Numbered from the stretch's first letter, positions 15,711-61,635 are shown. The stretch is 64,000 nt of DNA from Nemertoderma westbladi (GCA_032718475.1 JAUCBJ010001376.1:1-64000); one strand, 5' to 3'. A program made the numbers and translations. The notes: generated from the sequence alone by a model not told the origin.

Positions 15711-16502
15711 TTAACCACTGCATACGAGCCCCATTAGCTGGCCCATCGCCACCGCTCCACAATGGCGCATGTTCTCTACTAGTCCCAACCCGGCTGGCCC
15801 CGTCATAGCCATGTAGACCATTTGTGTGTCCAGGAGGTTGGGGGTCTCCGGACCGATGATCCTCTCCGCATCGTCGCGGATCGCCGATCCCACCTTTATC
15901 GTCGACTTCTCTCTTACTGCGTTCTGCACCGCCGTTGGCAACCAGTTTAACTTCGGCCCGTTCTTCTTCCCATACGTTCCCAGATCAAACAGGAATATGT
16001 CCCCATTTGGCGCGGTCAAATGGAGAAGTATGGTTCTGGCCGACCCCGCCGACCCTCTTCTTGAACCTTCCTCGTCTTCCACGGTCCCCTCATCGTCTAG
16101 GACCATGTATCCTCCCCTGCTGACAGACTCTACGAACCTCTTCCAGTCTTTTTTCGGTGGTTCCCTCGGATACTTCGGTATCCCGAACTTCGCCTCATCT
16201 CCCTTTACCACGTAGTGGAAATGCTGTGGAAATGTAGTGAAGATCGCGTTGTCTAGCGACGACGTCCCGTAGGTCCTGACCAGCCGCCTCTCATGCACCT
16301 CCCTGAAATGGTCCTGTAGCGCTCGCGCTTTATGATCCTTCTCCAACCGCTCGTAGTATCCCCTCGTCTTCTCCTCCGAATGCCTCTCGGTGAAGTCTAC
16401 TAGTATTTCTTTTCCCCCCATCTCCGCCTTTCTCTTTCTAACAAGTTTCTCCGCCACTTTGAATGCTCCCGATCGCTCACCTATAAGGTGGTGCCTTACC
16501 AA
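15711..16502 (-). CDS. DEDDy-type (WRN/RNase D-like) 3'-5' exonuclease, element A extra ORF, 3'-truncated
   Basis: ExoI-like YMVLDDEG, LLHL...IFLFDL, LPTAVQNAV, ExoII-like KVGSAIRDD, LLDTQ. Confidence 0.75.
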   Translation of the reverse strand: MVRHHLIGERSGAFKVAEKLVRKRKAEMGGKEILVDFTERHSEEKTRGYYERLEKDHKARALQDHFREVHERRLVRTYGTSSLDNAIFTTFPQHFHYVVKGDEAKFGIPKYPREPPKKDWKRFVESVSRGGYMVLDDEGTVEDEEGSRRGSAGSARTILLHLTAPNGDIFLFDLGTYGKKNGPKLNWLPTAVQNAVREKSTIKVGSAIRDDAERIIGPETPNLLDTQMVYMAMTGPAGLGLVENMRHCGAVAMGQLMGLVCSG

Positions 16503-16879
16503 GGCTCAATATAAGTGAGTGATGTAGTTAGGATGGTCTGTATGGTTCGATAATGGCCTATCTCTCTCTGAACGCTAGATTTGTGCTAATATTTGCCTAT
16601 TTTATTCCCTAAAGGTACCAAATTTCCTAAATTCCCTAATTTTGTCAGTTACTTTTATTATATTCTAGAATATTTTTATCTACTGTTACTATAATTTGTT
16701 GAATTTTGATTTTTTTTTTATATTAATTTTAATTCCGCAACTGTGCTATTAATATTTATAACGGATTATTTATTTGATAATCCCTATTCTAACCTATTCT
16801 ACGGGCTGTGCAGTACAGTAGTATGTCCCGTGCGGCCTACACGGTCTGTCCTGCTGTACCCATGTGCCCCCCTCTCACT

Positions 16880-17395
16880 ACTCACTACTAACTCTACTAA
16901 CTCTTACTAACACACTAACTAACTCCTACTAACTCTTACTAACACACTAACTAACTCCTACTAACTCTTACTAACACACTAACTAACTCCTACTAACTCT
17001 TACTAACACACTAACTAACTCCTACTAATGGTACTATGTACCCTCTTACTACTAACCAACTCCACTAACTCTTACTAACGGTACTACATACCCTCTTACT
17101 AACTAACTCCACTAACTCTTACTAACGGTACTACGTACCCTCTTACTAACTAACTCCACTAACTCTTACTAATGGTACTACGTACCCTCTTACTAACTAA
17201 CTCTGTAACGGTACTACACGTACCCTCTTACTAACTCTTCTACTAACGGTACTACACGTACCTTCCTACTAACTCTTCTACTAACGGTACTACACGTACC
17301 CTCTTACTAACTCTTCTACTAACGTTACTACGTACCCTCTTACTACTAACTCTCTAACTAACTTATATCTGCCTACTTACTTACTACGTACTTAC
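16880..17395. repeat. ACTAAC-based compound minisatellite in the pol-ORF3 spacer of element A
   Basis: 32-bp units actaactaactcctactaactcttactaacac grading into ggtactac(a)cgtaccctcttactaac units. Confidence 0.9.
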
Positions 17396-17532
17396 TATAT
17401 ACTATTACTTTCCTTTCTCTTACTCTCTTTCTCTATTAATTTTTATTATTTTTATTTTTTTATATTTTGTGTGGGAAGGGCGTCTCGCCCTCAATCCTAC
17501 CCCCCTCAGTCCAACACTTGGACGAATAAACT

Positions 17533-18837
17533 CTATGGTGCCCCTTCTAGCAGGCAACATTTACCTACAGCCCTCCTGTAGGTCTTCCTGTCTTTCTTTC
17601 CTATCTTACCCCCTATCCGCACTTCCACCGATCGGACACTTCCATCCTCGTCGGAGTAAGTGTCCACTACTCTTGCTAGCCTCCACTGATTGTTGATGAT
17701 GGTGTCGTGCGTGATGATCACCAAATCACCCTTCTTTAACTCTCTAGTGGTATTTCTCCACTTGCTCCTCCTATGTAGTGTAGGTAGGTATTCCTCGACC
17801 CGCCTCCTCCAGTACTCTGCGCTTATCACCTTCTGAGTCTCCTCCCTCTTCCTCTAGTGCTACTTCCTCTGAGCCCGGGTCCACCTTGTTCATTGGTGGC
17901 CAGGCCGTCCTATCGTTCAGGAACTGTGGCCCATGCTGCCACAATACTTCCTTCTTTAAGAAAGTGTGGCATGCCACACCCCTCGATAACAAGTCCGCTG
18001 GGTTCTCGTCCGTTGGGCAGTAGTGCCACATTTCCAAATCTGTCGTCGCTCTTATTTCGTCCACCCTATTTGTGACGAATATAGGGTATCTCGTCTTCTC
18101 ATTGTGCAGCCAACCAAGCACTACCATGGAGTCTGTCCAGTAGTGTGTTTCCACTATGTTGGGAATAGTGTCCATCAAGTAGGCTGTGGCCCTTATTCCT
18201 AATCTTGCAGCTGTCAACTCGAGTTTCGGGACCGATGCTGAATCTGGCTGCGTCGACTTTGCTTTGCTGAATGCAAGTCTGGGCTTATGAGCCCCCTCTC
18301 GTTGTACTAGGTAGAGTGCCGCTCCGTATGCTTCCAATGACGCATTGGAGAACATGTGTAGATCCAGATCCGTCATGTCCCCATCCGGGAAATACACGCA
18401 TGGCATGCTGTACATCCCCATCTGTTCTAAACTCTCCGTCCACTTACTCCACTGCTTGCTGATTTCTTCCGGGACCTCTGTATCCCACTCGTCCTTTAGC
18501 TTATATACTTTCTTAAGTATCTGTTTCCCTGTAACTAATAGTGGGGATGCTAGGCCTAGGGGATCGTATATCCTTGCTATGTACGATACATAGCGATACG
18601 GATGTCCGCGCCCTCCTGGCTCAGCTGATACTTGAACTCGTCTGTCTCCCGGTTCCACACGATCCCTAGTGCCTTCTGCTGGGACTCTACTCTATGGTCG
18701 ACTCTGGCCTCCTGTCCTCTATGGCTTTCATAAACTCTTCTGAGCTTCGGAGCCTCGCGGATCGTTTCGTTGGTATCGTCCGGGGTCCGCGGCGGTGTCC
18801 TTTCTCCCTCCGACAATCTTGGTTGTCCTGTGCTCAT
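17533..18837 (-). pseudogene. Deleted Bel/Pao gag-pol of element A
   Basis: Gag start fused to KALGIVWN (end of RT region); RNase H; integrase tail YWRRRVEEYLPTL...WRLARV...DGSVRSV...CCLLEG. RT and integrase cores are absent. Confidence 0.85.
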
Positions 18838-18933
18838 CTTTACCTTTTGTGGTGGCTGGCAGTCACAGTTTGGCAGTTGTCCCTAGAATTTCGTACTCTG
18901 CAGTCACAGCTTACAGTGTTGGGAATTGCGTAC

Positions 18934-19503
18934 TGTGACGGGATCAGGGGATCCCGACCGGTTTATTAGGTCACGCATTACCGTGTAATTGAGAAGAAGA
19001 TGGTTCGTCGTTATCGTTCTGATATTGTTATAGGTTAATGAGTAAAATATGATAGAACAGTTGACAGAATGTATGCAATATGATATAAATGTTGTACCGG
19101 TAGTGACGGTGACGGTACGAAATATCACCGGTCTGCACTGAATGACTGAGTAAACTAAACTGGTCAGTACTGTATGCAATATGATATATGATTGTCACTC
19201 CTACATTACTTTGGCCTCTCAATCTAGCGGATGCTTCCTTCGCCCTTATTGGCTAATAGTCTAATTCTCGGCTCTCACCTCTGTGGGAGTGCCCCCCCCC
19301 CCCCTCCTCGCTGCTGTTACTTTCCCTCTCGAGGTGGTTTGACCTCTAACCTCCCTTTGTGTGGCCTTCGGGGCTGTGTGTTGTCCCCATTATTGGGTGT
19401 GATACGAGATTAGTTGTGATTAATCTCGTATCTCCAATATTGCTGAAAAAGCGCCACTTCCCAACTTTATGGGGATAGTGAGGCGGAATTGAATCCGCTC
19501 ACA
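18934..19503 (-). repeat. 5' LTR of element A (570 bp)
   Basis: Sense strand starts TGTGAGCGGATTCAATTCC and ends GATCCCGTCACA, matching the termini of the C and E LTRs. Confidence 0.85.
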
Positions 19504-19595: not shown

Positions 19596-22500
19596 GACAG
19601 CAGTCTTCAGAAAACACCCTGACAGCACTCTTCAGAAAACAGCAGCAGCTGTAGGCCTGCCAACAATAAGACCAAGATAGATACCGGTACTAGGCCTATA
19701 CAGTTTTTATCTTTTGAGTCAGACTACAGCCAGACAGCACAATTTCACCGCTCTTAATCTCCACAGTTGTCATCGTTCTGGGCCGTTTCTTTGTGACAGA
19801 ACCATAATGGTTCTGAGACGGGGGAACCGCGGGGTAACCCTGCAACCCACCCAATACCCGTATTGGACTGGTTTGCCGAACACCCTGTCGCTACCGTTTC
19901 GAACTGCCGCGCCGAATCGACGGAGATGTGGTCGACGAGTGGATTTAGCCTCTACTGCTCTTGTTGGAGAAGAAGATCTTGGGTCTCCTCTCCACGAACT
20001 AGAGGCCTAATCGCCAAACTCTGTCTTCTGTCTCTGGCTGGGGATATTGAGACCAACCCAGGACCCAGCAGGATGCGGGCCCCGAAGATCAACTGTCCCG
20101 TCTGTCAACGAGGAACAAACTCTCAGAGTAAGATCATCCAGTGCGAGAGTTGTGACATATTTGTACATTTAAAATGTTACTGTAGGAAAAGCAGTAATTT
20201 ATGCTCCACCAGAAACAATCTTGTGCCAAGTTTTCTCTGCAAAAGCTGTATTTTTACCGAACTTCCCTTTCATGATACTATTTTAGAATCAGAAACCGAC
20301 GATTCATTCCTCACATCGCCTCTGCAAACTCCAAGTGATGCTGAGAGTGAAACTTTTAAATTTTTTAAGAAAAAAGGTCTGCATTTTTTGCATTTAAATG
20401 CACGATATCTCTGCTTCCCAAACTTTCCGAAATTCGTATTTTAATCAATAAATCCAACCCAGCAGTTTTAACAATCTCTGAAACTTGGCTCGATGATAGC
20501 GTTTCTGAGGGAGAAATTTTATATTGATAATTACGTAGTTTTACGTAAGGATAGGGACAGACACGGTGGTGGTGACTGTACTTACATTCGATGTGATTTA
20601 GCTTTTAATCGTAGGGAAGATTTAGAGACTTGTGACGAAGTTTTACTGGTGGAACTTTTACTTCCTAAAACTAAACCTATTTTAATTGGTACTTTATATC
20701 GGCCCCCTAAACAAATAGATTTTTTGCAAAATTTTGAAAATACAATTTTATGTAATCTTAGGTCAGACTGTGAAATATATTTCTTAGGTTATTTTAATAT
20801 CTGTTACCATCACAAAGCATCCCCCATCTGTAAACAGTACCAAAGTATTTTAAATTTGTTTGGTTTAAAACAAATTTTTCGAGATTCTACCAGAATTACC
20901 AGTAAAACTTATACTTTACTAGATCATAATCCTTTGTAATAATACTGATATTATTTCTCAATCTGGGGTTTTACCTATAGGTCTAAGCGATCATTTTATA
21001 GTTTTTTGCACAAGAAAGACACAAAAATCTTTTTTCGGGGATCATAAAACAGTAACTGTTAGGTCTATGAAAAATTACAGCAAGGATCGCTTTTTAAGTT
21101 TGTTAGTTAATTCTGACTGGGAACCCTGTTTTAAGGCCGCTGACATTAACCTTGCATACACTGATTTTAAAGATATTTTTAAAGGCACTTAATACTGTAG
21201 CACCAATTAAAGAAATTAGTCTTAAACAACGCACTGAGCCCTGGATGACCTCGGGTATTCTTAGTAATATCAGAGAAAGAGATAACTATTTGTATAAATT
21301 TAGGAAATACCGTGTTTTAGCTGCTTATAATAATTACTGCAAATATAGAAACCTTGTCCAACGGGAAATAAAAAAAGCTAAATCTGAATATTTGTACGAC
21401 AAAATAAGTGAGAATAAAGATAATCCTTAAAGTCTATGGTCTACCCTAAAATCTTTAGGTTATAAAAACCTTAAATCTAAATCGAATATTGTTCTGCAAG
21501 ATAATGGTGAGCTGATTCATGATCATACTCTAGTTAGTAATTTATTTAATAATTATTTTACTAATGTGGCCTCTAATTTAGTTAAGAAGTTACCGTTATC
21601 AAGTAATAAATATAGTATAGGGTCCGAAACTCTAAATAATTTTTATTTAGAAAAGTTACAAAATTCAGAAAAGTTATTTTTAAAACCCGTTTCTGAGGAT
21701 TTCGTTTTTCAAAATATACTTAGCCTATCAGCCTCAAAAACTACCGGTCTAGACCTAATACCTGCCCGTTTTCTTAAGGATGGTATTGAAGTACTTAAAG
21801 TGCCTATTACTTTTATTATTAATTACTCTATCGTAGATAATGTAGTACCAGACGAACTGAAATTAGCTAAGGTTGTTCCTCTGTATAAAAAGAATAGTAA
21901 AGTAGAAACCTGTAATTACAGACCTGTTGGTATCTTAAGTATTGTATCTAAAATTCTAGAACGTTCTGTTTTTCTACAGCTGGAAGCACATCTTAGTAGG
22001 CTAAATCTGATCTATGAACTTCAGTCTGGTTTTCGTAAATCATATTCTACAGACACCTGTCTTATTAACTTAACTGATACAATTAGATGTAATAACGCAA
22101 TGGGTTTATATACTGGTATGGTAATGTTGGACCTACAAAAGGCTTTCGATACAGTAGATCACGAAATTCTGCTTGGTAAGTTAGGCCTGATGGGTGTAGG
22201 TTCTATAGACTGGTTCAAGTCCTACCTGTCAGACAGAGGTCAAACTGTAGTCATTAGCAAATCGCAGTCTACTATACAAGAGATTACCTGTGGTGTACCG
22301 CAAGGTAGTATATTAGGTCCTCTGCTTTTTGAATGCTATGTAAATGATATGATAAGTAGTATAGATCCCGATTTTAAACTCATTTTATATACCGACGACA
22401 GTGCTCTTATTTTCTCTCATAAAGATCCTATCCATATTTCCCAAAAGTTAAGTGCAGTTCTAGAATCCTGTAATGAGTGGTTGGTTGATAATATGCTATC

Positions 22501-23603
22501 ATTTCACTACGGTAAGACTGAAAGTATTTTGTTTGGTTCCAAAAGAAAGTTAAAGAAGGTAACTAAGTTTGAAGTCACTAGTAATGGACATAAGATTGAA
22601 AATAAAAAGGAAGTTAAATATTTAGGCGCCACATTGGATAACTGCTTATCAGGAGAAAGCACAGTGAAAAATATTTTCTCGAAAGTTAACAGTAGGCTTA
22701 GGTTTCTATACAAAATTAAAAATAGTTTTCAACACCGACTCCCGCAAGTTACTTTGCTCTTCTTTAATACAGTGCCATATGGACTATGCATGCTCTTCTT
22801 GGTATGAAGGCTTAACCAAACAGCTTAAATGTAAATTACAAGTAGCTCAGAATAAAGTAGTACGATTTATTAAAGACTACAAACCTAGACACCACCTAAC
22901 TCCAGAAGACTTTTCTGAATCTGGACTACTTAACTTAGATAGTAGAGTTAAGCAGCTACGCCTTAACCATGTGCATAAAGTGTATAATGGTAAATGTCGT
23001 AATTACCTAAAACAAAAATTCAACAGAGTACGCGATACACACTCTTTCAGTACCAGAGCTAGTGCTTCAAACTTCTACCTCCCGAATTGTAAATCCTTTG
23101 AATCTGATACTTTCTTTTTTAACAGCATTAAAATTTGGAACGCTCTGTCTAATGAAATTAAAAATCTAGATAATCAACATTCTTTTAAATCTGCAGTTAA
23201 ATCTCACCTCCGTGTGCAATGTAAAATGTACAATAGTACAACGTACAATAGTCCTACAGTAAGTTATTAGTTTATTAATTATTTACTATTTATACTGTAA
23301 TTACGTTTTATAATAAATTGTTCTGTACATTACATCTTTATCGTTGAGTCGGACATTGTCACGCTCTCGGTAAAGTTGTACATGTACATAATGTAATTAC
23401 GTTTTATATTGGTTTTAGGTTAGCGTAGTGTAATATTGTATTTGTAACCAAGTAACATAAAGGACCCCCTTGGAAATAAGCTGCAAAGCTTTAGGGGTAA
23501 TCCTATATGTTATGTTGGACAATACCTTTATACCGATACATTGTTCGGTGTATTTGTTATTGTTTTTACATAATGTATAAATAAATCTATCTATCTATCT
23601 ATC
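19596..23603 (+). mobile_element. Near-complete CR1/L2-group (Crack/Daphne-like) LINE: 2A, PHD, APE, RT; decayed
   Basis: LLSLAGDIETNPGP; PHD CPVC...CESC...HLKC...CKSC; HLNAR, SETWL, YRPP, LDH, SDH; [36 protein letters not shown]; 3' AATAAA(TCTA)n tail at ~23579-23603. Confidence 0.92.
20001..20066 (+). other. 2A 'StopGo' ribosome-skipping motif
   Basis: RGLIAKLCLLSLAGDIETNPG|P matches the consensus D(V/I)ExNPGP. Confidence 0.88.
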
Positions 23604-23746: not shown

Positions 23747-24898
23747 CTAGTCTGCCTCTGGTAGATTCCAACGATGGCGTACTCGAGGCTTCGCTTCCTG
23801 GGACGATGAGGACAACCCCTGAGCGCTAACTAGTTCCCGACTGATGCTCCTTCCTCGGCCTCGCCCCATTTGCCGCGTCGCAGCGGGCGCCTCCGCCAAC
23901 TCCTCCTTCTGTAATTGTACGTGCGACCTTTCGGACATCCCCTGCGCTTTGCGTTGCAGCTGCTGAGCATCGATGATTTCATGGTATTGAGCGTCTTTCG
24001 CTTGATGCTTACTGAGGACCACTCCATCAGCTCCTTGCCATGAGCTAGGAGCTCCAGCTGTCGTTGCGGTGGGCGCATCAGCCCGCTGCTCCGCTATCCG
24101 TTCAGCGGTCAATGACCCTAGATGAATGTGGATCAACAGGAATTCGTTCCTGTATTGGATGGCCGATACCCTCCAATCGCCCCACGCGCGCACCAACTTC
24201 CTTGTCTCCGAGAATATTCCATTAGTAATTCTATTGCAAATAGCGATAAAGTTCCAGGTATATTTATTGTCCATATTAAGCTGTCTGAAGTATGACCTGA
24301 TCACCATAACTCTGGTGTTCCGTGGAAAGTCTTGAGCAGTTAACATTAATTCTTGATACTGGGGTAGCGATTGTAGGTAGGGCTTGTACGCCACATGTGA
24401 AGGATCCACTGCCCAGAATCCGTAGCCCGCCTTAAACGGCAGCCACCTCATCTGGGCCTGAATATGGTAATCCGCCATATCTTCCCACTTATCTAACATC
24501 TCTCGAAGTAAGTTAGCGCTATGGTTCTGAAAGGCATCGTCATGCAGCTGACACTTCGAACTGCGGTGTACCTTCACCCCACAATATCCGCACTGAGAAA
24601 TGAAGACGGTACATATATAGAATGAATGGTCAGTCTCATTGCACCAACGGCAAACCTTGTGCGCTGCTTCGACCACAGCATCACACGTCTTCTGACTGTG
24701 TCTTGTGCTACCGCACAACTTATATCTACGCACTTGCGGGAACCAAGCCCTCTCATATATGAGGTCTCCAATCGGTTTCGTGCTTCCTTCCTTCCCAATA
24801 TCTAGAACAATGTCATCTTCTCTGGTTAAGGGTTGCTGATCTGGAACAAAGTAAACATCTTCGCCTTTGTTTTCGATCTCTAATATTTCCTCTCGCAT
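23747..24898 (-). CDS. Element B ORF3 C-terminal part: triple Zn-knuckle module
   Basis: CGSTRHSQKTC, CRWCNETDHSFYIC, CGYCGVKVHRSSKC, then WEDMADYH...AGYGF. Confidence 0.75.
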   Translation of the reverse strand: MREEILEIENKGEDVYFVPDQQPLTREDDIVLDIGKEGSTKPIGDLIYERAWFPQVRRYKLCGSTRHSQKTCDAVVEAAHKVCRWCNETDHSFYICTVFISQCGYCGVKVHRSSKCQLHDDAFQNHSANLLREMLDKWEDMADYHIQAQMRWLPFKAGYGFWAVDPSHVAYKPYLQSLPQYQELMLTAQDFPRNTRVMVIRSYFRQLNMDNKYTWNFIAICNRITNGIFSETRKLVRAWGDWRVSAIQYRNEFLLIHIHLGSLTAERIAEQRADAPTATTAGAPSSWQGADGVVLSKHQAKDAQYHEIIDAQQLQRKAQGMSERSHVQLQKEELAEAPAATRQMGRGRGRSISRELVSAQGLSSSSQEAKPRVRHRWNLPEAD

Positions 24899-25163
24899 CC
24901 GTTTAGGATATCACTTCTCCACCGGAAGATCCATTCCGAACACCTTTACTAACGTCTCAGGCCAACCCTCTCCCTTCCTCTCTCTAACGGGTCTGTCTGC
25001 ATCCAAGTGGAGTACCAAACCCGCGGGTTAGGTTCCCGAACCACTTCTCCAATACCTCTGCCATCGGATACTCCATGGAAGTTCGATCTCCCAAGTCTTC
25101 AATGTTCTGTCGGTATACTCCTTCGAATATCGCCTATCCCCTTCTGACCATCGATGTATTATC

Positions 25164-27025
25164 CTACGATTGGTTGAAGAACGGGGTTAAGAAATGCTTC
25201 ATCACGTCAGACTGAATTCCCCCTTTCGATCTGATGTACTTTTCTCCTCCAAATACCAACGGATGGCGCTTCAAAACTCTCGCGACTATGTCCGTAATTA
25301 GGCAAGTTACCGTGTAGACTCCAACACCAAATAATATTGCAACAAAGCACAGGGTGGTGCGCAGATGTTCCAATATACCAACGCTTGCCACTTGAAATGG
25401 GATTTGAACTCAGCTCCCGGCGGCGTGTTATATTCACTATATGCCTCCTCGTATTTCTTTTGCGTGTTTAACTTGATGTCCCAATTATATAATAAGTGCG
25501 CTATAAAACCCATACCAGTCTTAACAGAATTGGGGTACTCCATATAAATCCCAATGTCCTGCGCCCATAGCAATAATAGCTTCGTGTCAATGAATGGTCT
25601 TCGCAATAGATCCTTCAGGTCTGCCGTAGCGTTGAAATCACTCTCCAGATCACTCTGGACACCTGATCCCACCTTGACATAATCTTGGTTAAAAATCGCC
25701 TCCCTAACCTTCTTGGGTAACATCCTAGTGTCAATCCGCTCCGCTCCATGCATACCCCCTCGTCTACATACCTCTAAGATTTGCTCTCGGGGATCCTTCC
25801 CGCGCCTATATTGCGTCGTTATAATGCTCGCTCGAACTTGAATACATTTGCTGGTCAAGTATTCCTGGTGAGACCCTCCCTCGTTGTCATAAAACATTAG
25901 ACGCAAATCCTCCAAGGATTCCTCCGTCATTCTCCATTGGTGCTGAATCTCGTCGGATGGGGTCCACATGCGCTCAATAGCCTTGGGGTCATCATATTGG
26001 GTATAGGAACCCTTCCTCCTCAACCACGCTTGGTCTACCTCCTCGTCGTCTGGGAACGTAGTCACCGCGACCCATACCTTTATGTATTTGTCTAGCCAAC
26101 TGAACAACTGACTCTCCTTCCCCGGAGCTCCAAACTTATCCAATGTGTTGTAGTACATATCTGCATCGGAACATCGCGCAGGAACTTCGCACATAAGGCT
26201 TCCCTCAAGCAGTCGACATTCCCATGATCCGCCAACGTCACCATTGGCAAGAATCGAATAGCTTCTCGCGCCTCTGGATGATCTACCAACATCGCAGCTT
26301 CATTACCACTGGAATAATACACCGGTCTAGGTTGAGATACAGCATGTGGAACAAATCCAGTAACTCTCCTCATCTCTTTCTGGTGTTTATCCACAGTCTT
26401 ATTATATTCAGCTATACGTTCTATGAATAGTTGTTTCACATTTGCCGCTCGCTCATCCTGTCGCAACACGTCTATCTCGTCCTGGTGCCCAGGCGTGAGC
26501 TTCTTATAGGTGGTGAAGTGTGGCGAAGTGAATGTGGACCAGGGACTCGAGAGTTCCAAACCCGCGGGTTTGGTGCTCGAGTCCCGTACCACTTCGCGCC
26601 GCGCCTCCAGGTCCTTCTATGCTCGGTAGAGTGAAATGGCCGCTGCCATTTCTATCAAAGCGGGAGTCGTACGAGGTTTAATCACTGTGTACGGATCCAA
26701 AGTTGTAACGGTCGGCGTAACAGGTCTCGGAGGTCTCTTTCCGCTAAAATCGATGCTGAAAATCGGATTACTCATCGGGTAACCTCCTTCGTTGTTCATA
26801 AGAATCTGATGAGCCTTGCACCGCGTTAATATCCGCGTTTAGACGATCGGGGATGGATACATCTTGTTTATTCATACATTCGCTGCATTTGTTGAACAAA
26901 TTATACATGCTGAAAACCCTTGGCGTCTCCTCGTCCTCCCCTCGGGTTCTTCGGTAAAGATGCATTCTGTCAAATTGATCTCTAACGGCAGGTAGAGGTT
27001 CATCGTGCGATAAATACATATTCAT
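25164..27025 (-). pseudogene. Element B ORF3 N-terminal part with DEDDy exonuclease (frameshifted)
   Basis: ORF 25307-26194: LMFYDNEG, MLPKKVREAIF, KVGSGVQSD, FIDTK, KTGMGFIA, YLVLES. Confidence 0.78.
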
Positions 27026-27489
27026 ATGGTATAGTCACGCTATCTCCTCGTTGGGATCCGCGCTTACATCTCACACATCAACGGCGAAGTCGTAGGGGTA
27101 TCGGGTTCGGTATTCTCGACGCAACACCTCCATTCAGTCCTCCAACGCCCTCATTCTTTCCCTCCTTAATCCTTTATCGTAATTCGATTTAAAGTTAGTA
27201 TTCAAATCTATCACAGATCATCCGTGGTAATACACATTTGAATCCTTACAACCATGACGGGCAAACGGTAGTCCGGCTTCTTCTTTAGCAGTCCAACCTC
27301 TCCTCGGTTCCGCAGTGATATCTTTACTCATCATTATTACTCATTTCTTTGCGCATATATTATATGTATATATATATTTATCCAAATAATCTGTTACATT
27401 AATTAGTTACACTGTGGGTGGATCAGTTAGATAGTAAGGAGGGATCGACATCCCGAGCTACCTGGCCCACCTTCCAGCAGTTCAGGTTC

Positions 27490-30400: not shown

Positions 30401-30616
30401 CCTTACAGTAGCGGTAGGGGACCCTAATAATATTACCTCACCTTGATCTTCCTCACTAGTCACTGTCTCGTCCTCCTGTTCACTCACGTCAGCATCACTC
30501 GCTGCATCGTCATAGTCAGCATTATCGTCAACAGTTATGTTGACACTGTCGTCAGTCGGTGGTCCAGCCACCATCTCATAGCTGTCCTCTAGCGCCTCCT
30601 TCTCTGAGACACTCAT
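27490..30616 (-). pseudogene. Bel/Pao gag + aspartic protease of element B
   Basis: ELKLERE-repeat coiled coil, DUF1759-like region, Cys/His knuckles and protease motif; multiple stops and frameshifts. Confidence 0.85.
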
Positions 30617-32259: not shown

Positions 32260-32793
32260 TGTTAGCTTATCCAATTCCGCTAACACAAACCCATAGAGTG
32301 AGCCATTAAGCAATATTGGGAGCACGAGGTTGATTACCAATATCAACCTCGTGTTACCCCAAAAAAGTGGGAAGGGAAGGAGAAACACACAATAGGAGGT
32401 CAGGGGCCAAACCCCTAACCCAAAGAGAACAGGTGGAGTGAACGGGAACACTCCAAAGGGCGCCAACAGGGGTATCAACCAATCAGAGGGGGGAAAGGCA
32501 TCGATTAGGTACAGCAATAAGGCCACCGTGCAATATAACCAGTTACCAGTAATCATACCAGTCAGTTATCCCAGTATCATATTGGTGCTAGTTAGGTTAG
32601 ATAGTTTAGCTAGGGAAGGACCGGGACTTTAGTTACCGTATCCCGCCTTCCGTGTACAACAACCTATATCTATATCTTATTAGACTGATCATTATATACA
32701 CCGAACATCAGAACTCATTTTACTCTTTACACACGGCGGGGACGCGTGAACTAAACATCGGATAAATCGGGATCCCTCCTGGATCCCGTCACA
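32260..32793 (+). repeat. 5' LTR of element C
   Basis: tgttagcttatccaattcc...ggatcccgtcaca. Confidence 0.97.
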
Positions 32794-51250: not shown

Positions 51251-53780
51251 ATGACTGAGTTGATAGAAGATGATCTTGGTATCAGGGAGCGATATACCCT
51301 ACCACTGCAAGCGTTTGTTGATAGTTTGATAACTGGCGACGCTAGTCAACACACGACGGAAGACGATGACCGTTATATCGAACCGCCAATGTCAAAAGAA
51401 CAGCTCAAGCGTGAATTGGACTATCGGAAATTCACCGCTCGCTATACGCATCGTAATGGTACGTATATGGACTTCTTAACTACTGGTCATCCTATCGATT
51501 TACACAATACGGACGATGTAGACACTAAAAGGGAAATGATTCTATTTAAATATCATGCCCAGCGGAGTTGGAATGATAAACTGAGAATTGAACAAGAAAA
51601 TTATATTCGAAACCGACTCGAAAGAGAGAATGTGGAAGAATGTTTTTAAAAGACAAGTGGAGGGAAATCAGCTGGAGAAAAACCATACAGTAATGTCCAG
51701 GGTCCAAAATGTGAATAGTTTTCCCCGGGGCGCGGGTGCTCGCAGGCAGTCTCCTTCGGGAGGCCTCTTACCTCATCCTCTTCCTGCAATTATTGTGATC
51801 AGTGTCACAATAAAAGAGTAAGAATGAGTAATGACGTGAAAGGAAAACATGCCCATTGTGGTATCTTATAGATACTATCCCCAAATCCTTCCTCCTTCCT
51901 ACCACTACTCTCCCTCTACCCATCGCTATCTATCGAGGATATAAGACGTTGATAGAGAAACACTCTTCCCCCCATCTTTTCTACCCAAAGCGCTTGGAGC
52001 TTTCGGGAGAATATCGACCCATCATTGCTATATCGTGATATTGATCATACCTCCTCCTACTAAACCTCCCCATCGTTTACTATTGATCTGGATGCTTATA
52101 TTGGTATCCATACCTCCTGTTTGTGTACCATCGTGTTGGTATTTATAATATCAACCTCCACCCCTCTTGTTGTTGATTGGATAATCAACTATCAATAATT
52201 TCCTCAAGTCCATGGCCATTGATACAAGGACTGAAAGGACACAATAATAGTCTGTGAACAACTGGTACCATTATGTGTCATAAATCTGGTTGTTCACCTT
52301 CCTTAGTGCTTGGGAATAAATTCAGTTTGAGATAGCCATCGAATGTTGAATCCTCTTACTGAGATCGTATTTCTGCCTATTTCTGAATATATATGACATA
52401 GGCCTTCCCTGGCCCTATATCATCAATGGAAGACATATTAAGTGAATACAATAAATTCATCAGATTCGAATGCTTTAGGCGCTTTCTGACTCCATTCCAC
52501 AATGTTGATAGTCAGTTCAAGGACTGCGCTTTGACTAAGCTCAGCTTAAGAGACTCAGCTGCTGAGAAGTTGGACAGCGCTGGATTCGCCATTTTTAAGG
52601 ACGTTTGTATACATAACCTACATTCATCTGTCATACAAAGATCCCGAATCTCCACTGGTTATTCTATTGTGGAAGTTCAAACAGTGGGTTCACTTGAGGA
52701 AACAGCTGCGCCTATCTCAGCTGTGCAAGTGGAAGAAGAACCAATTTGCTTGGAATCCGAAGAGATTCAACCCACAGCGCCTAGGAGTAGCGACAATGAT
52801 TATGTGTTAGAATGGTATCAGGGTCCACAATGTCTCACGGCATATGATTATCAGCATGCCAATTACATTTCTAGGAAACGTTGCCGATTATGTGCATCAC
52901 GAGACCACTTTACCCCGGTGGACTCCAGCGAACCCTGCTCCTAATTTAAAGATCAACCTATTATGGAGATTTATTGTGCGTATTGTAGACTCAACAATCT
53001 ACACATCTTCGCCGTCTGTCCTCAATTTATGACTCAATGTCACCATTGTCAGTTCAAAGGACATGCAAGTTTCGATTGCCCTTTCAACCGGAGAGCGTAG
53101 ACGAAACAGTTACCCTGCGCTACATCATAGCTTGGGAAGCTAACGCGGATCTCCATTGCGAATCACATAACCGATACTATCCAGCGTTTCACCCATAGCT
53201 CTTTGCATCCATCGAACAAAATTCTCGCATTCCTAGTTACGAACTGATGAAGCATGTTGGCGAGAATATTTCAACTAAATATGTTCGCAAGTATCTTAGG
53301 AATATTAATCCCAATAACCTGAATTCCTATAACTTGATCAACTTCATCCGTCAAGATCAGGAATACGGCGACTTGTTCATAAACTCGCATCCTGAATTAC
53401 AAGAAATTCATAGACAACCATATGAATATAAAGCCAGAGAACGCAAATTAGAGAGAACAATCAAACCGCGGAAATTTCTCACTACACACGGTCAACCTAA
53501 AGCTGTCGTACAAACGACCCATCAAGGACCGGTAAGAGCTGCCGTCCTGAAACGAGCTCTAAAGGTTGTTCACCCTCGTTCCACCGATGTTGATATCGAT
53601 CAACCAGGTACCTCGACCGGCGGATACACCGACCGTAATCCAAAACCTTCTGATGCAATTGTATTGCACCCTTCCCCCAGGAGTTATAGCCCTCCTAGTA
53701 AAGTGGCTCGTCCCAAAGAGAAAAAGACTCTTACTAGTCTCAAAAAACTTCGTAAACGCCGTTCACGAAAGAAGGACTGA
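51251..53780 (+). pseudogene. Element F extra ORF3 remnant with the triple Zn-knuckle module
   Basis: CRLCASRDH (~52880); YCAYCRLNNLHIFAVCPQFMTQCHHCQFKGHASFDCP (~52972-53082); AWEANADLH (~53130); basic C-terminus. No clear exonuclease motifs seen. Confidence 0.7.
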
Positions 53781-55339: not shown

Positions 55340-56422
55340 TGATGGTCTAGGGCAGAAGTCAGAATGAATGATTCTGTCGCATTGCGGCATATTCATATGT
55401 AAACAACAGGAGAGTATGGAGAGTGAGAGCAAAGGGGGTTGAGTATTGGGGAAGTATAGGAGGAGAGGTACGAAAGTTAGGGGGGAAAAGTGAAGTGTGC
55501 GAGATCCAAGTGAGGGGGCAAGCAGTAAGGATGAGTCCTATGGGACTAGTGTAAGAGGACATTGGAAGATAGAGTCCAGGATAAAGTTGCATGAGGAGAG
55601 GGGTTGATCATCTAAACAGAGACGCCAGATGCCTTGGTACAGCTTAGCTCGCAGATGTACCAAGGATGGGTAGTGAAAACAGACCCATGGGGGCCGGCCA
55701 GGAAAGCTTACCCCGATAAGAAAATTCCACCCCACATCCAATATTAGATTGGATTCCAGCGGAATTGAAGCGCACTTAAGGTTGATGCTATCTTCTCACC
55801 GGGAAGATTGCCTGGGGGGAGTGTAAGCGGATGCAATTCCCTGCACTACCCACCGAAAATGGGCTTAGTGGCATTTTACCGATTATAGTTGGGAAGGTGA
55901 CATTACCAATAATAATGTCACCTCATAACCAACTTAGGCGATACGCATCGCCAGCCACAAAGAGGTGGGGCTAGCAAGGCTAGCATGTGGGGATAGTGGC
56001 AACAGGGAGTGGCGAGGTGACAATTAATCATCCCAATGATGGGTGGGGAAAACAGATTGGAAGTGATTAGAGCGCATCTATTGGACAGGCCACTCCGTAG
56101 TGTATCAGTGATTAATATGTGTTAATAATATAACCGTTGCACTTATTGATTCCGATTCAGTTGGTTTCTATACAGTTGTGAAACCGGAACGGTTTTTAAC
56201 CGTTGTCGTCGTCGTCGTCATTACCATGCTATTATATTCTGACTGTGCTATTATTATGTTCTGTGATTACAATAACTGACAGTAAAAACTCAGTTATTTC
56301 AACGGCCTTCGGCCTATTATATATATCCAGACTACAGCTTTAGCAGCCTATGGACGCGGCGACGCATATAACACACAGACACCGGTCGGGATCCTTATTG
56401 CCAACTCCAAGATCCCGTCACA
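55340..56422 (+). mobile_element. 3' remnant of LTR element E (A/C family) with a 601-bp LTR at 55822-56422
   Basis: PPT gggggag then TGTAAGCGGATGCAATTCC...GATCCCGTCACA; the pre-PPT sequence is homologous to element C. Confidence 0.88.
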
Positions 56423-57954
56423 TAATACATTCTGGTATACGGAAATTTAAGTTATTTCCATGCCATTGATTACTTTGCAGCATTACGAGTAATTCACCAG
56501 AACGCTGTTAAGTTGATATAATGTAACTAAATTAAATTAATTTCGCAATTTTTCTAATTTGTTGTTTATTTTACATCGACGGCGAGATCAGAAACAACAG
56601 CATTTTACCTTATTGGTTAGATTAATTTAGTTTTGGATTTATTTTAAGATTTATGATATTTTTAGCTAAATAGCTGATCAAGCGTACGATAACAGACCTA
56701 AAGAAACTATAGACCCCCCCCCCCCCCCCCCGCATATAAATGTTATACATAGTAGGCCTTCACTCTATAACATTGCAGCATTTTTTCGGATATTCTTCTA
56801 ATAAAGTTTCATATCTGCCTAACTAATAATTTTCGCTGACTTTCCACAGATGATGCTGGCGATAAATGACGGGTGATAATTCATTGTTGATAGAATCAAA
56901 CTTATGTTGTGATATGGCGGTTTCACCATTTTATGTCAAACAAACTTGGTTTCTGTTTGTCCATCAATGTGCGGACTTCATCATTCTATCTCTTGACTTT
57001 TGAATCATTGTCTGTTATTCGTTACATTATGTCGCATTATTAAATAGACTATGTTATGGGTACCCACTTTTTGACCAAATTTATTCATATGAAAATGGCT
57101 TTTATCATAAGTTTTTTGTTCTAGACTAATATTTAACCTTCTGCCAGTTAGATGGTAGCTAGTAATTTTGATTTGTGTTAGCTAGTATTTTTATGGGTTC
57201 AGTTCCGCCCCCGGCTACATTTTTGGATTTTTAACTGTACTTTTATACTAGCTAGTGTTTTCACTTTTTGTAGTTTTAAATGTTCTAGAACATGTCAGTT
57301 ATTGATTAAAATAAAAATTTATGTTCTAGAACAAATATTTTTTGTTTAAATCTTTATACAATCTAGATTTTGAAACAAATTGTTGTCTTTTGTTTTTTTT
57401 TTTTTTTTTTTTAACTACTTGTTGTTTTAAAAGTTCTAGAACATGTAAGTTACCGGTATTGATTAAAATATAATGTTTTTCTATGATAGCTAGTATTTTT
57501 AATCTAGCTAGCTATATCTTTACTTTACTTATTAGCTAGCTATATCTTTAGCTATACTGGTTGTTGCCATTATTCCCGACACCAAGGGGGAAAACGCCGA
57601 TGCTGGAGGCGGAATTTTCAGACCTCTTTATCCCGGCCAGTCACCGGATATTGTGAGTGGAGAAGGATGTTATCTGAGATGCAAGATTGCGGGTAGAGAA
57701 AAAGTTTCATTGGTTGGATATAATCTTTAATGTAACTTGAACTCTGATTGAATCCTGATTGAGAATACTTTGGGCTTCCCCAAACCAATATACCAAAATA
57801 ATATTCACAATAATACACAAATATAAATTCCTACAGTAAATTATTTAATTACCCACTGTTCGCTTAACTTTCAGATTTTGACCTAACTAATGTTCACCAT
57901 TTTCCCGCGGTCCTAGTCCCGGTACCGTAGAGTCAGAGTTGGTCGATCCTTTGC

Positions 57955-58520
57955 TTGTCCGTCCCACCCTTCCCGAACCCTAAAGGGATCGGTCATCAGG
58001 AAAGCGGTATGGCTTAGCTAGGGGTCTGTCGGTTCATCGCAGGGTCCCAACCACCTAAGCTTTCCGAATCCTTTTCAGGCTCGTAATCGCGTCGGTAGCC
58101 GAGAATCTGCTCCGAATAGTCGGTAGGCCAGTAGAGTCCGGTCCTCTGTCTTTCGACTCTGTCGCATGTCCGTCCCACCCTTCCCGAACCCTAAAGGGAT
58201 CGGTCATCAGGAAAGCGGTACGGCTTAGCTAGGGGTCTGTCGGCCCGTTGTGAGTCCCAACTGTCGGAGCTTTCCGAGTCCTTTTCAGGCTCGTACTAAC
58301 ACCAGTCATGGAACCCACGCCAGGAAGTCAGTCCTCGTCGAACCCTTCCTTTCCGTCCGGTCAGTCGATCCTTCGCAAGTCCACAATGCGAAGACTCCGC
58401 CCGAGTCCCTTTCAGGCTCAGTCATAGCCAACGCACCGGAAACCGCTTAGGATCTGTCAGTTCCCATCGCAAATCCCTGGCGCAACCAGCAACGCCCTAG
58501 TCCCTTTCAGGCTCAGTCGC
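57955..58520. repeat. Direct repeats in the 3' region of element D (211-bp-period duplication plus recurring CCTTTCAGGCTC)
   Basis: 57957-58084 is nearly identical to 58168-58295; tcc(c/t)tttcaggctc at ~58070, 58280, 58407 and 58501. Confidence 0.85.
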
Positions 58521-59036
58521 CACTGATGGCCAGGGACAGCTAAGGGCAGTCCTTGTCCCCAGGCCTAGCGGGTTTCCAACTACCGAAATAGAAGGAGGTT
58601 GTCTAGGCCTCAGTAACTATCAGGCAACCCTTACAGCTGAGAGTATTGCTTGATTTTGCCTCCCACCCCTGGCCCTTAAATATCTGATATGATTCCTGCG
58701 CCCCGTAAGTCGTCCCAAGATTCGCCCATAACTCGCCCCCAGTCTATCGAATGTACCCAAATTTTGTGTTCCCGCACCCACCACTGATATTGGCACATTC
58801 ATAAAAAATAAATCCAAAAAATATGTAACTCGCGTTATGATAAATTGAAATACCGCAAAATCCCCCCAAATGACCTTTGTGAGGTCTATCGGTAGATCGA
58901 GTTTGCGTAAGGTCATTTCCCCATATAAAAACCCAATTTTTATTATTGCATAGTCTTGATTAATTTGTCCTAGAGTCAGTTTACATACATATAAAAATAA
59001 ATGTTCAAATAAATGTCTATAAAATGTCCTGGTCTT

Positions 59037-60389
59037 CTATCTCCTGCTTTGATATGCTTTCCTTTTCTTCGCCCGTCGACTTTCATCTATCACCAGTGCG
59101 GGTAGAGGAGCATCATTGGCCGACGTGAGCATCGCCGCGGCCTGCCTCCTGGCAGCCCTTCCTCGGGGAGGTATCGAGATGAGATCTGTTCTCCTCTCCA
59201 GCTCGGTGGTTCGAGCCGCCTGGAACCATTCTCCATCTCCAAACGCTTTTGTATACGAATATAGACGTCTAATCACTTCGAAGGGGCCGAATAGGTTGGC
59301 GCTAAGCAATAAATCCTCATAGTGGAAAGGCAAGGTCTTTACTGTATGGAGGCATTCGGGGAACGAAATATACCCGCACGCCATCTCCTGTGCGATGTTA
59401 TGGGCGCTCAATCGTGCTCTGGTCTTTACGTGTACGTTGGCATACGTCTCGAACATAACCATGTTCCCGGTAGCCATAATGTCCTTGGTAGGACATTTAA
59501 TGTTGCACCGAGGGCTCGCTGTATGCCCACGGAAGCCGTACGTTGTACAGACGTTATACAGTGTCGGGCAAACCGCTATGTCATGGCCCGGGGTAGTGCA
59601 ATATGGACAATAGATTATCCCGAGGATTTGGAAGCACGGTTCGGTTATTCGTTGTTTCTTACCGCGAGGAAACTGATCCGAACCGCAGCTACTGCAAACA
59701 TCGAGTTGCATTTCCCGACCGAAAAAGATCGGGATTTGTACGCCGGCGTAATATTCCAGTCATCTATCCTTTTTAGGGATAATCGTCGTAACCGGAAGCC
59801 CGTGGAACGCCGCGCTGTCGCGGAGTTGAGCCTAGCTTCGGTATCCCTCCTTATGGTCTGCAGGACGCATCTCGGGTGCCCGTTTCTGAATCCACTCCGT
59901 CTGTTCGGTGTACCATTGGGTGAGTCTCATCAGGTCCTGTGGAATGGTGGGAGCCGTCGCAACAGCCGGTCGGCGAAGGGGTGCCGGGATATTCGCCGAA
60001 GGAATCCCGAGGAGGTCTCCGGAGGTTGGTGGTATACTAGGGCCCTTCGTAACTTGGATAGCCGATTGGGTCCGCTGTGTACTGGTACTTGGGGTTTCTG
60101 TGGACCAATCCTCTCCTCCAGGAAACGGGTAAGGAGATAACCTCGTGCATGCATTGTCGAAGTCACTAAGTGCGAGGGTGGTAACTAGTTCTCTTGCCGC
60201 ACTACCAGAGCCAAGTGGAGTGGTTACGCCGGATTCCGTCGCTGGCTCAGTCGCGGCAATACGCTTAGCAGCTGATTCGTAGTCAACTTCCGGTGCGTGT
60301 TGACGTTTTGGTGTAGATAGCAGAATACCTTTGTGTTTCCATAACTCCTCTCCTTCCGACGACACTATAGCTCTATTACTCTGCGCCAA
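59037..60389 (-). pseudogene. Element D ORF3 C-terminal part: linker + triple Zn-knuckle module
   Basis: CSSCGSDQF, YCPYCTTPGHDIAVCP, CTTYGFRGHTASPRC, FETYANVH, ACGY. Confidence 0.75.
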
Positions 60390-61635
60390 GGAGATCGGTA
60401 ATCGTGGGGATATCGAATGGTCTGTGCAGATCCCAGGATTCGATTACATCGAGCGTCTTGGTATCTCCCGGTGGGATATTCTGTACTGCCTTGAACGTGT
60501 GGTCGATCACCTCGTTCCATTCGTAATCTATGAAGGACTTTGGGACCGCGCTAATAAGTTTATCGAGGGTTTTATAGATGAACTTAGCAACCGTGTACGA
60601 TTTAATCGTGACGTAGATGTAGTTCCGTCGATCCGGATCATCCCAGCGTTGGTGGATCGTCCACTTCCTATCTACATTCTTCCAATGGTTCTCCCGCTCA
60701 TGAGGTATCGCTAAATCCGGATGCACGCCGTAGAATTTATTGTAGTCTTGGAACTTCTGTGGTTTAAAATCTAAACCGCCATTTAGCACCGCTAGGTAGC
60801 CGATACCGGATTTAGTCTGTCTCACCTCTTTAAACCCGCCCATAAAGTCCGTGACCAGTAACCAGGCCAGCAGGGTTTGGGTGTCGATGAAGTGGCTAAT
60901 CGCGCTAATGTCCTCTCTACGATTCATTCCGAATGGAGCGTTGATATAGTCGTTCCGGAGATCCGCTTTTATATCTGACCCGATTTTGATAATATCGAAG
61001 TCGAACAGGACCTGTTGGATCGCCGATGGTAGTAGCCAGATTACCCCGGCTGTCTGTATCTCTTGGCAGGATGTCGGGAAGATTCGGCACACTAACACCA
61101 ACCCGTCCAGGGTTCCGAGGACTACTATTAGCGACCGACCGTACTCCTTCGTCCCGTATTTCTCTTTATAGTCGTCTCGGTTTTGGATGACTGCCATTCG
61201 TTCCTCTCGCAGCGTCGCTGTATATTCCGCCAGGTTTCCCCAGTGTGTGAGGTATGTACTCTTGTCGTCAATGAAACTCTGGCATCGCACCATTGTAATC
61301 GCCTTTGGAGTCGGCATCGCATTGCCTTCGTTGTCATATATTAGGCACCGGGATTTGTAAACGCTTTGCCGGAATGTATCCCAGAATGACAACTCTCCTC
61401 CTCCGGTTGCCTCAGCGTTCCGAGTCCTTTTCAGGCTCGTACTAGCGTCGGTGAACCGGAGCGGCTGCAGGTTACGGGAATCCGGGACCTCCCTCCCAGA
61501 GAAACGAATGACTCGCACATTCTCGCTCAACAGGATGTTCCATTTCGCATCAAAACTAGGAGATCCAGGCTGTGGGTAGTCCAATAAATCAATCGTATTA
61601 CGTAATTCGCCAAGAATCTGGCGATTCGGGTCCAT
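60376..61635 (-). CDS. Element D ORF3: DEDDy-type 3'-5' exonuclease
   Basis: CLIYDNEG, LVLVCRIF, LLPSAIQQVLFD, KIGSDIKAD, FIDTQ, KSGIGYLA, RWDDP...YVTIKSY. Confidence 0.8.
   Translation of the reverse strand: MDPNRQILGELRNTIDLLDYPQPGSPSFDAKWNILLSENVRVIRFSGREVPDSRNLQPLRFTDASTSLKRTRNAEATGGGELSFWDTFRQSVYKSRCLIYDNEGNAMPTPKAITMVRCQSFIDDKSTYLTHWGNLAEYTATLREERMAVIQNRDDYKEKYGTKEYGRSLIVVLGTLDGLVLVCRIFPTSCQEIQTAGVIWLLPSAIQQVLFDFDIIKIGSDIKADLRNDYINAPFGMNRREDISAISHFIDTQTLLAWLLVTDFMGGFKEVRQTKSGIGYLAVLNGGLDFKPQKFQDYNKFYGVHPDLAIPHERENHWKNVDRKWTIHQRWDDPDRRNYIYVTIKSYTVAKFIYKTLDKLISAVPKSFIDYEWNEVIDHTFKAVQNIPPGDTKTLDVIESWDLHRPFDIPTITDLLGAE

Follow-up and report, generated by a model that had tools for sequence, protein, structure and literature searches.

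Bel/Pao remnants and the position of ORF3

The window, a stretch of 64,000 nt from Nemertoderma westbladi (GCA_032718475.1, JAUCBJ010001376.1:1-64000), contains Bel/Pao elements designated A to E and a fragment, F. Elements A, B and D are decayed remnants, their copies within the window being broken relics, and element C is a young relative of A. An extra ORF (ORF3) is found in A, B and D, and pieces of it in E and F. The features are listed below, with the basis of assignment in brackets.

15711-16505, minus: A, exonuclease part of ORF3 with Exo I, Exo II, DT and GxG (frames, motifs, profile)
16872-17363, no strand: A, spacer of tandem repeats that separates ORF3 from the integrase tail (repeat scan)
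17533-17853, minus: A, C-terminal tail of integrase, DUF5641 E 2e-22, integrase core missing (Pfam)
17771-18691, minus: A, RNase H region, Peptidase_A17 E 7e-37 (Pfam)
18925-18933, minus: A, leader lacking a TGG start (pairing with the LTR, positions 19115-19123, at 8 of 9 bases)
18934-19503, minus: A, 5' LTR, TGT...ACA (end-to-end homology with the LTR of C)
23747-24910, minus: B, ORF3 Cys/His knuckle module and basic tail (frames, module comparison)
25307-26299, minus: B, ORF3 exonuclease frame, Exo I at 25888, Exo III YxxxE at about 25333 (frames, motifs, profile)
26095-27330, minus: B, probably a long N-terminal portion of ORF3, split among several broken frames, upstream edge approximate (frames)
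27542-30619, minus: B, gag (DUF1759), Gag knuckles and protease (Pfam, frames, comparison)
32260-36093, plus: C, 534-bp LTRs 99.4% alike, 5-bp target duplication, gag-like ORFs only (LTR pair, frames)
41388-41793, plus: F, end of a Pao-type protease, then an ORF3 exonuclease piece at 41617-41793, i-E 0.005 (profile)
45273-49707, plus: E, pol in pieces, namely protease, RT, RNase H, integrase and DUF5641 (Pfam, comparison)
52879-53780, plus: E, ORF3 remnant with knuckle module at 52879-53091 (i-E 6e-8) and basic tail (profile)
57900-58730, minus: D, probably either a 3' untranslated region or an LTR, with uncertain boundaries (four GAAA-type hairpin copies)
59037-59759, minus: D, ORF3 Cys/His knuckle module (frames, module comparison)
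59832-60443, minus: D, ORF3 low-complexity linker frame (frames)
60376-61659, minus: D, ORF3 exonuclease frame, Exo I at 61335 followed by a long insertion (frames, fold, motifs)
61935-62690, no strand: D, spacer with tandem repeats (repeat scan)
62843-63981, minus: D, integrase with zinc finger, core (weak rve) and DUF5641 E 7e-28, the element running off the window (Pfam)

The Bel/Pao hallmarks Peptidase_A17 and DUF5641 are both present in A and in E, and D has DUF5641 together with the weak rve match. The order in E (protease, RT, RNase H, integrase, with the RT piece read by eye) is that of Bel/Pao. Element B has DUF1759 (E 2e-6), Cys/His boxes and a protease resembling that of E, and a Gag with DUF1759 and Cys/His boxes followed by a protease is given as a Bel/Pao hallmark (PMC554778). 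RT, RNase H and integrase are not recognisable in B, Peptidase_A17 and DUF5641 both being absent through deletion, and no family was recognised in its 26095-27330 region. The RNase H and integrase domains of A, D and E share only 29-39% identity. The LTRs of A and C align with a score of 156, the best of 200 shuffles reaching 46.

The open frames on the minus strand measure 264 aa in A (16505-15711), 330 aa in B (26299-25307) and 427 aa in D (61659-60376), so that the same-sense extra ORF described earlier is present in all three. Its location after the integrase holds for D (rve piece and DUF5641) and, by the DUF5641 tail only, for A, but not for B, where the ORF3 region lies behind the protease. 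From the end of the integrase or protease to Exo I the distance is 1436 nt in A, 1654 nt in B and 1508 nt in D, always on the same strand, a spacing with a rough chance of 2e-4 for a window picked post hoc. E and F were not part of the preliminary description, and both keep the order and sense seen in A, B and D. That description also named ORF3 between paired LTRs as something to check for; within the 64-kb window no pair was found around any ORF3, the sole pair being that of C, in which a profile scan detected no ORF3. The only LTR of element A is the 5' one, both A and B are interrupted at the 3' end, and the 5' end of D lies beyond the window.

Motifs, knuckles and predicted fold of ORF3

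The motifs named previously are all present and colinear in A, B and D, and G-x-G, formerly ascribed to B and D, occurs in A as well (positions given for A, B and D in turn).

Exo I aspartate: 16097, 25888, 61335
LP: 15941, 25720, 61032
K(V/I)GS: 15896, 25675, 60987
DT: 15830, 25588, 60885
G-x-G: 15791, 25516, 60807

Exo I D-x-E and the Exo II aspartate are kept in five of five sequences (A, B, D and the outside relatives P0001 and P0002) that are 17-34% alike, the Exo II residue being an invariant aspartate after K-x-G. Three of the four sequences that reach Exo III have its acid, as YxxxD in P0002 and as YxxxE (glutamate for aspartate) in P0001 and B; D has the tyrosine and no acid near 60621, and the ORF3 of A stops ahead of Exo III, at the onset of unrelated RT-like sequence. 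Scored with a 19-residue Exo I block taken from the outside relatives, the proposed site came top among 246 windows in A and among 409 in D; in B it came third among 312, and first once A joined the block. An alternative MAFFT alignment that put Exo I of D near residue 157 scored 2.5, as opposed to 19.0, and was rejected.

The exonuclease copies of the window are 23-29% identical. When local scores were compared with 200 shuffles, none reached that of B-D (z 15.9) or A-B (z 4.9) and two reached that of A-D (z 3.5). A profile built from P0001 and P0002 only, run against the six-frame window, recovered D (i-E 1e-21), B (6e-11) and A (4e-5), and nothing else at E < 1. As had been described, B and D run on into a Cys/His module in other frames (24910-23750 and 59759-59040), and the two modules match each other (0/200 shuffles reach the score, z 6.5). 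P0001 is an unbroken 648-aa relative with the same exonuclease and triple Cys/His module in one frame, and its knuckles match those of D and B with scores that none of 200 shuffles reached. The low identity within the window and the same layout in P0001 bear out the earlier view of an old, conserved exonuclease and knuckle ORF3. The five exonucleases group with a support of only 79/87, on long branches. No exonuclease was detected upstream of the knuckles of E by profile scan.

The ORF3 exonuclease is multi-copy: 245-293 contigs per run (two samples, one possibly the source) fell on the 896-nt exonuclease core of D, most of them less than 95% alike. Among the 40 listed of 189 differences, 18 were synonymous against 10.1 expected (P 0.005). 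Among these listed differences the excess is limited to 61080-61345 (14/21), with none at 60450-61079 (4/19), nor among the few listed for the integrase (0/6) and knuckles (2/5). Word-index homolog searches, which are weak as negatives, returned no match for D, none in the set of longer proteins for the A1 profile, and only P0001 itself for P0001; the latter had no match in phages.

The Pfam scan gave no exonuclease match for A, B or D, and P0001 scored 11.9 bits against PF01612, below the cut-off of 23.6 (E 0.2). By ESM features, 25 of 30 matches were PF01612. Scans for related loci returned L001-L004 only, and no retrotransposon; the ORF3 profile matches L003, an exonuclease beside DUF6729 (E 9e-7), and the family A polymerases L001 (E 1.5e-5) and L002 (E 1e-3), all three of which exceed the Pfam cut-off for PF01612. 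With the ORF3 model, Foldseek placed EXD2 first (E 2.9e-4), with RNase D, Nibbler and Exd1 among the first matches, and all listed matches with E < 0.06 were DEDD-type exonucleases or an Egalitarian complex. The top rows of VIA were EXD2, RICE, Nibbler, diDNase, Exd1 and WRN (Z 5.1-5.7, rmsd 4.2-6.0, 119-145 aligned residues); the Z of 5.7 goes with an rmsd of 5.0 and 119 aligned residues, and the alignments begin at about residue 103 of D. Since the model is of low confidence (mean pLDDT 40.7) and a VIA Z below 8 may mean a common arrangement, the fold match counts as moderate evidence. A single-sequence fold of the D ORF3 reached a pLDDT of only 29.9, PDB sequence searches found no exonuclease, and in a viral fold library no match reached E <= 0.001, the weaker ones including several 3'-5' exonucleases. 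The ESM, Foldseek, VIA and profile matches agree with the proposed DEDDy fold of WRN/EXD type, though the Pfam scan misses it, and the domain is predicted to be a DEDDy exonuclease of PF01612 type, in fold and in metal-dependent activity.

Leaders and hairpins

In A and C no TGG follows the LTR, and the leaders pair with their own LTR at the same site, with letters changed. The pairing is 9/9 in C, reached by 5/200 shuffles, and 8/9 in A; with G-U allowed it is not significant (39/200 shuffles). It was seen in A and C only; in B and E the scan did not turn up a clear site, and the LTR ends of B, D and E were not located. Element D has five copies of a hairpin motif, four within 57900-58730 and the fifth at 61410-61452, and 3/5 fold with a GAAA loop. 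A 43-nt motif flanks the D cassette (61410-61452 and 58054-58096, 88% alike). The joints between hairpin copies have sides of at most 30 letters and may be misplacements. A hammerhead at the CTGATGA hairpins (58210 and 57999) was dropped, as stems I and III could not be built by eye, and Rfam over 8300-64000 gave one chance match, elsewhere than these hairpins. Six residues behind the B protease that resemble the integrase end of A were not significant (E 0.23).

Possible roles and relation to known elements

The observed position, strand, motifs, homology between copies and unbroken two-domain relative, together with the predicted fold and metal-dependent activity, lead us to regard ORF3 as a Bel/Pao-encoded DEDDy exonuclease with three knuckles, likely an accessory nuclease that would trim the 3' ends of element RNA. 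That an exonuclease-knuckle ORF3 is borne by the elements is very probable, and intact members probably encode an active enzyme. The knuckles would grip the RNA of the element, and the exonuclease would trim unpaired 3' ends at particle maturation or at the priming of reverse transcription; ORF3 would then lie inside the LTRs, form a separate translation unit, be carried in the particle and act on RNA. RNA-end or primer trimming as its main role is put forward only tentatively.

Nibbler, Exd1 and RICE1, all structural neighbours of ORF3, act in small-RNA pathways. ORF3 might accordingly degrade or sequester piRNAs, siRNAs or double-stranded RNA of the element and so weaken silencing, a role that has been raised for the rotifer ORFs (PMC5408684) and has a parallel in the arenavirus ExoN, which suppresses innate signalling (PMC7968707). 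However, nucleocapsid-like knuckles would be equally suited to binding RNA of the element itself, and in rotifers small RNAs are found on every ORF type, with no unambiguous copy-number advantage (PMC5408684); counter-defence seems rather unlikely.

Retention of catalytic residues across divergent sequences usually means catalysis. The D-x-E and Exo II aspartate held in 5/5 sequences at 17-34% identity, and the full YxxxD of P0002, therefore speak against a pseudo-nuclease adaptor that, like Exd1 or Egalitarian, would use the fold to bind structured RNA (e.g., the D hairpins) and route or package element RNA. The missing Exo III acid in D, the survival of the knuckles alone in E, the presence of Exd1 and Egalitarian among the fold matches, and the five hairpin copies (three with a GAAA loop) fit such an adaptor, which we nevertheless consider distinctly unlikely.

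Integrase itself makes the 3' DNA ends, and the exonuclease stands in an ORF of its own, joined to knuckles, and not within Pol. Both points make a WRN- or Pol I-like DNA exonuclease, acting as an editor of cDNA in the course of reverse transcription or as a trimmer of DNA ends ahead of integration, highly improbable, even though the nearest loci obtained are PF01612 domains (two of the three scanned lying in family A polymerases) and the DEDDy domain of Dada is proposed to process 3' DNA ends (PMC3706591). Just as improbable is an origin of the cassette as an independent mobile unit, or as a piece of a host gene, that came to lie behind Bel/Pao remnants where repeats cluster: no LTR pair encloses ORF3, the 43-nt motif lies on either side of the D cassette, and rotifer DEDDy ORFs are shared with Terminons (PMC5408684), but strand and near-constant distance agree in A, B and D, order and sense in E and F, the surroundings of the cassette showed no target duplication, poly(A) or RT of its own, and 43 nt is too short for an LTR.

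Juno and Vesta are gypsy-like elements. The bdelloid LTR retrotransposons Juno1/2 and Vesta2/5 carry a DEDDy ORF3 shared with Athena/Terminons, of predicted activity and with a proposed role in RNA 3'-end processing or silencing (PMC5408684). As in the elements described here, it is a separate ORF3 behind pol for an RNase D/WRN-like 3'-5' exonuclease; the carriers here have Bel/Pao-specific Pfam domains, whereas the rotifer hosts are Juno/Vesta clades with a dUTPase. The rotifer motif is stated as DEED, against D-E-D-(D/E) here with aspartate as third acid in 5/5, and a Cys-His-Cys motif but no triple knuckle is described for Vesta2/5 (PMC5408684). Dada, another mobile element with a DEDDy 3'-5' exonuclease, differs in being a DNA transposon with the domain inside its transposase (PMC3706591).

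Env-like ORF3s of Bel/Pao elements are described for Tas, Cer and Atlas (PMC8742986; PMC9094657), and the ICTV Belpaoviridae profile lists only gag, pol and env, the slot behind the integrase being env or empty (PMC8742986). The present elements share with this family the DUF1759 gag with Cys/His boxes, the PR-RT-RH-IN order, Peptidase_A17, DUF5641 and an extra slot behind the integrase, but this slot holds an exonuclease with knuckles and not env. Cellular EXD2, WRN-exo, Nibbler/Mut-7, Exd1 and RNase D are the top fold matches, at 10-19% identity in structural alignments, and no donor can be named; ORF3 differs from them in the C-terminal triple knuckle, in a conserved tail and, in D, in the long insertion that follows Exo I. 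The ESM cluster nearest to P0001 (score 0.86), mostly Euglenozoa with PF01612 in 100% and zf-CCHC in 61%, is a lead only. Malik et al. are said to have noted, in 2000, an RNase D-like domain in a Cer element of C. elegans, and if so an exonuclease in Bel/Pao would not be a first. In the literature covered, with Repbase, Dfam, GyDB and key older papers outside its scope, DEDDy ORF3s were found only in rotifer gypsy-like elements and Terminons, and the exonuclease-knuckle ORF3 may be new for Bel/Pao, a claim that is unrefuted and not proven.

Because Pfam-based annotation misses such ORF3s, they may be undercounted, and P0001, as an unbroken natural protein, makes the role of ORF3, left open by the 2017 rotifer paper (PMC5408684), testable at the bench. 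The keeping of the enzyme across elements whose pol domains are about 30-39% identical points to a step of the LTR retrotransposon cycle for which a nuclease encoded by the element is at times required. An unlikely extension of this is an ancient Bel/Pao lineage, spread over more than one genome, whose own exonuclease-knuckle RNA-processing enzyme cuts a self-primer back to its paired 3' end; if true, then together with the rotifer case it would mean that LTR retrotransposons have repeatedly recruited DEDDy nucleases, to serve either one so far unrecognised step in reverse transcription or a defence against silencing.

Bel/Pao remnants and the position of ORF3

The window consists of repeat-rich, eukaryotic-type DNA, in which several remnants of Bel/Pao elements occur alongside non-LTR elements and a satellite. 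The list below gives the domains found by Pfam (in a scan covering 49 frames, except for the DUF5641 of A), and the exonuclease frames of ORF3, an extra same-strand gene of the decayed elements A, B and D that is a candidate DEDDy exonuclease with Cys/His knuckles.

Features of the Bel/Pao elements in the window
16505-15711, minus strand, ORF3 exonuclease frame of element A
17539-17853, minus strand, DUF5641 of element A
17774-18691, minus strand, Peptidase_A17 of element A
26299-25307, minus strand, ORF3 exonuclease frame of element B
28641-29033, minus strand, DUF1759 of element B
41617-41793, plus strand, exonuclease piece of fragment F
46966-47994, plus strand, Peptidase_A17 of element E
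49018-49704, plus strand, DUF5641 of element E
61659-60376, minus strand, ORF3 exonuclease frame of element D
62846-63754, minus strand, DUF5641 of element D

The preliminary description reported shared motifs in ORF3, and the three frames (A, B and D) do carry every named motif in colinear order. Shuffled sequences reached the real local score in 0/200 cases for B-D, 0/200 for A-B and 2/200 for A-D, and the RNase H or integrase of A, D and E share 29-39% identity. On the same strand, Exo I, the first of the three DEDDy catalytic motifs, follows the end of pol or protease by 1436, 1654 and 1508 nt in A, B and D. The proposed location of ORF3 after integrase holds for D, where a near-complete integrase is found upstream; in A the RNase H passes straight to an integrase tail, which is all that remains, and the claim fails for B, where gag-protease is followed by ORF3 and no RT, RNase H or integrase was detectable between them. 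Element E retains a complete, though broken, pol and a knuckle module 3.2 kb downstream of integrase, with no exonuclease found, and in fragment F a protease end is joined to the exonuclease piece; both retain the gene order of A, B and D. No ORF3 is present in element C, a young relative of A with paired LTRs, and it is because of C that the 5' LTR of A could be recognised. No ORF3 occurs between a demonstrated LTR pair within the window, and the copies found there are relics.

The surrounding DNA includes a satellite of about 5 kb (3116-8200; 48-nt unit, copies about 97% alike) with long spurious ORFs on both strands, and two short stretches with inverted-repeat ends (10795-11757 and 13016-13389, arms of 45 nt and 40 nt) that are possibly MITE-like. 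An RT-like sequence (14389-15715, plus strand), of non-LTR type by its motifs, truncates the ORF3 of A; its frame at 14389-15627 had no Pfam match. A non-LTR element with a PHD-finger ORF, RVT_1 and a short microsatellite tail (19797-23600, plus strand) adjoins the 3' end of B. The sequence at 55668-55840 is 80% alike to 35405-35578 (3' internal end of C plus LTR start), a likeness that marks it as a further relic of the C family.

Fold assignment and relatives of ORF3

The DEDDy assignment is firm because several lines of evidence, each moderate alone, combine. A direct Pfam exonuclease match was not obtained for the ORF3 domain, and even P0001, an outside protein relative, gave only E 0.2. 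With ESM features, PF01612 (the Pfam family of DEDDy exonuclease) appeared in 25/30 matches to the D query, at 0.90, and the top match to P0001 (0.86) was an exonuclease-plus-CCHC cluster. The structure model of D, built from five sequences, is weak (pLDDT 40.7 overall, 50-70 in parts of residues 141-263), but in a Foldseek search with this low-confidence model EXD2 came first (E 2.9e-4), followed by RNase D, Nibbler, Exd1 and RICE1. VIA recovered these families too, with Z scores (5-5.7) that fall short of its comfort level of Z = 8. The ORF3 profile matched 3/4 fetched loci, and all three loci scanned with Pfam passed the PF01612 cut-off. Among outside sequences, L003 matched the profile of the ORF3 exonucleases best (hhalign probability 83%, E 9e-6). 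On this metagenome contig, a DUF6729 ORF is followed by a PF01612 exonuclease (430-2548), an arrangement that presumably resembles a fungal transposon-type gene.

When 1.84 billion representatives were searched exhaustively with D ORF3, there were two matches, both singletons: P0001 (648 aa, E 2.6e-6, ENA contig of 9449 nt) and P0002 (472 aa, E 8.8e-5, ENA contig of 2199 nt). The P0001 protein runs in one unbroken frame from the exonuclease through a low-complexity linker to three Cys/His knuckles and a conserved tail, and it matches the knuckle frames of both D (z 14.2) and B (z 9.2), scores that 0/200 shuffles reached. A profile of P0001 and P0002 matched only D, B and A in the window. In a tree, a branch with support of only 79/87 separated the five ORF3 domains from the other sequences.

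Diverged copies of the D exonuclease were found in public DNA runs on 245, 280 and 293 contigs, counts that represent two samples, one possibly the window's own source. Among 40 differences listed, 18 were synonymous against 10.1 expected (P 0.005), with 149 further differences outside this set; among those listed, the excess falls around Exo I and the insertion in D (14/21) and is absent downstream (4/19).

Active site and possible function

The Exo I site was correctly placed at the outset: scored with a block of 19 residues taken from the outside proteins, it comes first in both A and D, and third in B. D has a long insertion downstream of Exo I. The Exo II aspartate is invariant, and Exo III reads YxxxD in P0002 and YxxxE in P0001 and B; its acid is missing in D, and A is truncated before it. 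This residue pattern argues that intact members are likely to be catalytically active.

ORF3 is a predicted two-metal 3'-5' exonuclease, which its knuckles would keep on element RNA. These knuckles (59609) are weakly like the Gag knuckles of B (28270; minus strand, E 0.25); in both, two of the fingers are six residues apart. The ORF3 knuckles may derive from a nucleocapsid duplication. Elements A (18925-19503) and C (32260-36093) have related LTRs and no TGG primer site, and in both the first nine bases of the leader pair with one shared site inside the LTR, although the letters differ (9/9 in C, 8/9 in A). This is a weak, self-priming-like signature from two related elements only; with such pairing and no TGG, the 3' end of a self-primer would have to be defined. 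We tentatively favour, over four rivals, the trimming of RNA 3' ends inside the particle, a reading for which this weak lead speaks. That ORF3 instead counters silencing is rather less probable, and that it serves as a pseudo-nuclease adaptor, set beside the residue pattern of intact members, is unlikely. DNA editing by the enzyme, and a separate nested unit, are both very improbable.

A GAGCCTGAAA hairpin motif also recurs on the minus strand of D, in five copies: one within the ORF3 frame (61438) and four downstream (58514, 58419, 58292 and 58082). An Rfam search with it gave no match; it is possibly an RNA signal or a deletion hotspot.

Comparison with known elements

The genes of Bel/Pao are given as gag, pol and env (ICTV profile, PMC8742986). 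DEDDy ORF3s were described in the rotifer elements Juno, Vesta and Terminons as previously unreported in retrotransposons (PMC5408684); the accessible parts of PMC5718144 and PMC6431247 have rotifer cases only, and those of PMC3706591 report a DEDDy domain in Dada transposases. The word 'exonuclease' is absent from the main text of PMC3118150, as far as accessible, and a Bel/Pao exonuclease was not found in the available portions of PMC554778, PMC3985635, PMC9094657, PMC11662393 and bioRxiv 10.64898/2026.03.22.711591. Among the papers that the literature search covered, none was on a Bel/Pao exonuclease ORF. For C. elegans, Malik et al. reportedly noted in 2000 that a Cer element has an RNase D-like domain. 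It is a serious possibility, if short of probable, that print or Repbase already documents a Bel/Pao exonuclease. By analogy, the ORF3 of the window may work like that of rotifers, but it falls outside the rotifer group by the two features tested. Judged from sequence, the Bel/Pao remnants do carry a real ORF3 that joins exonuclease and knuckles, and an unbroken relative exists elsewhere.
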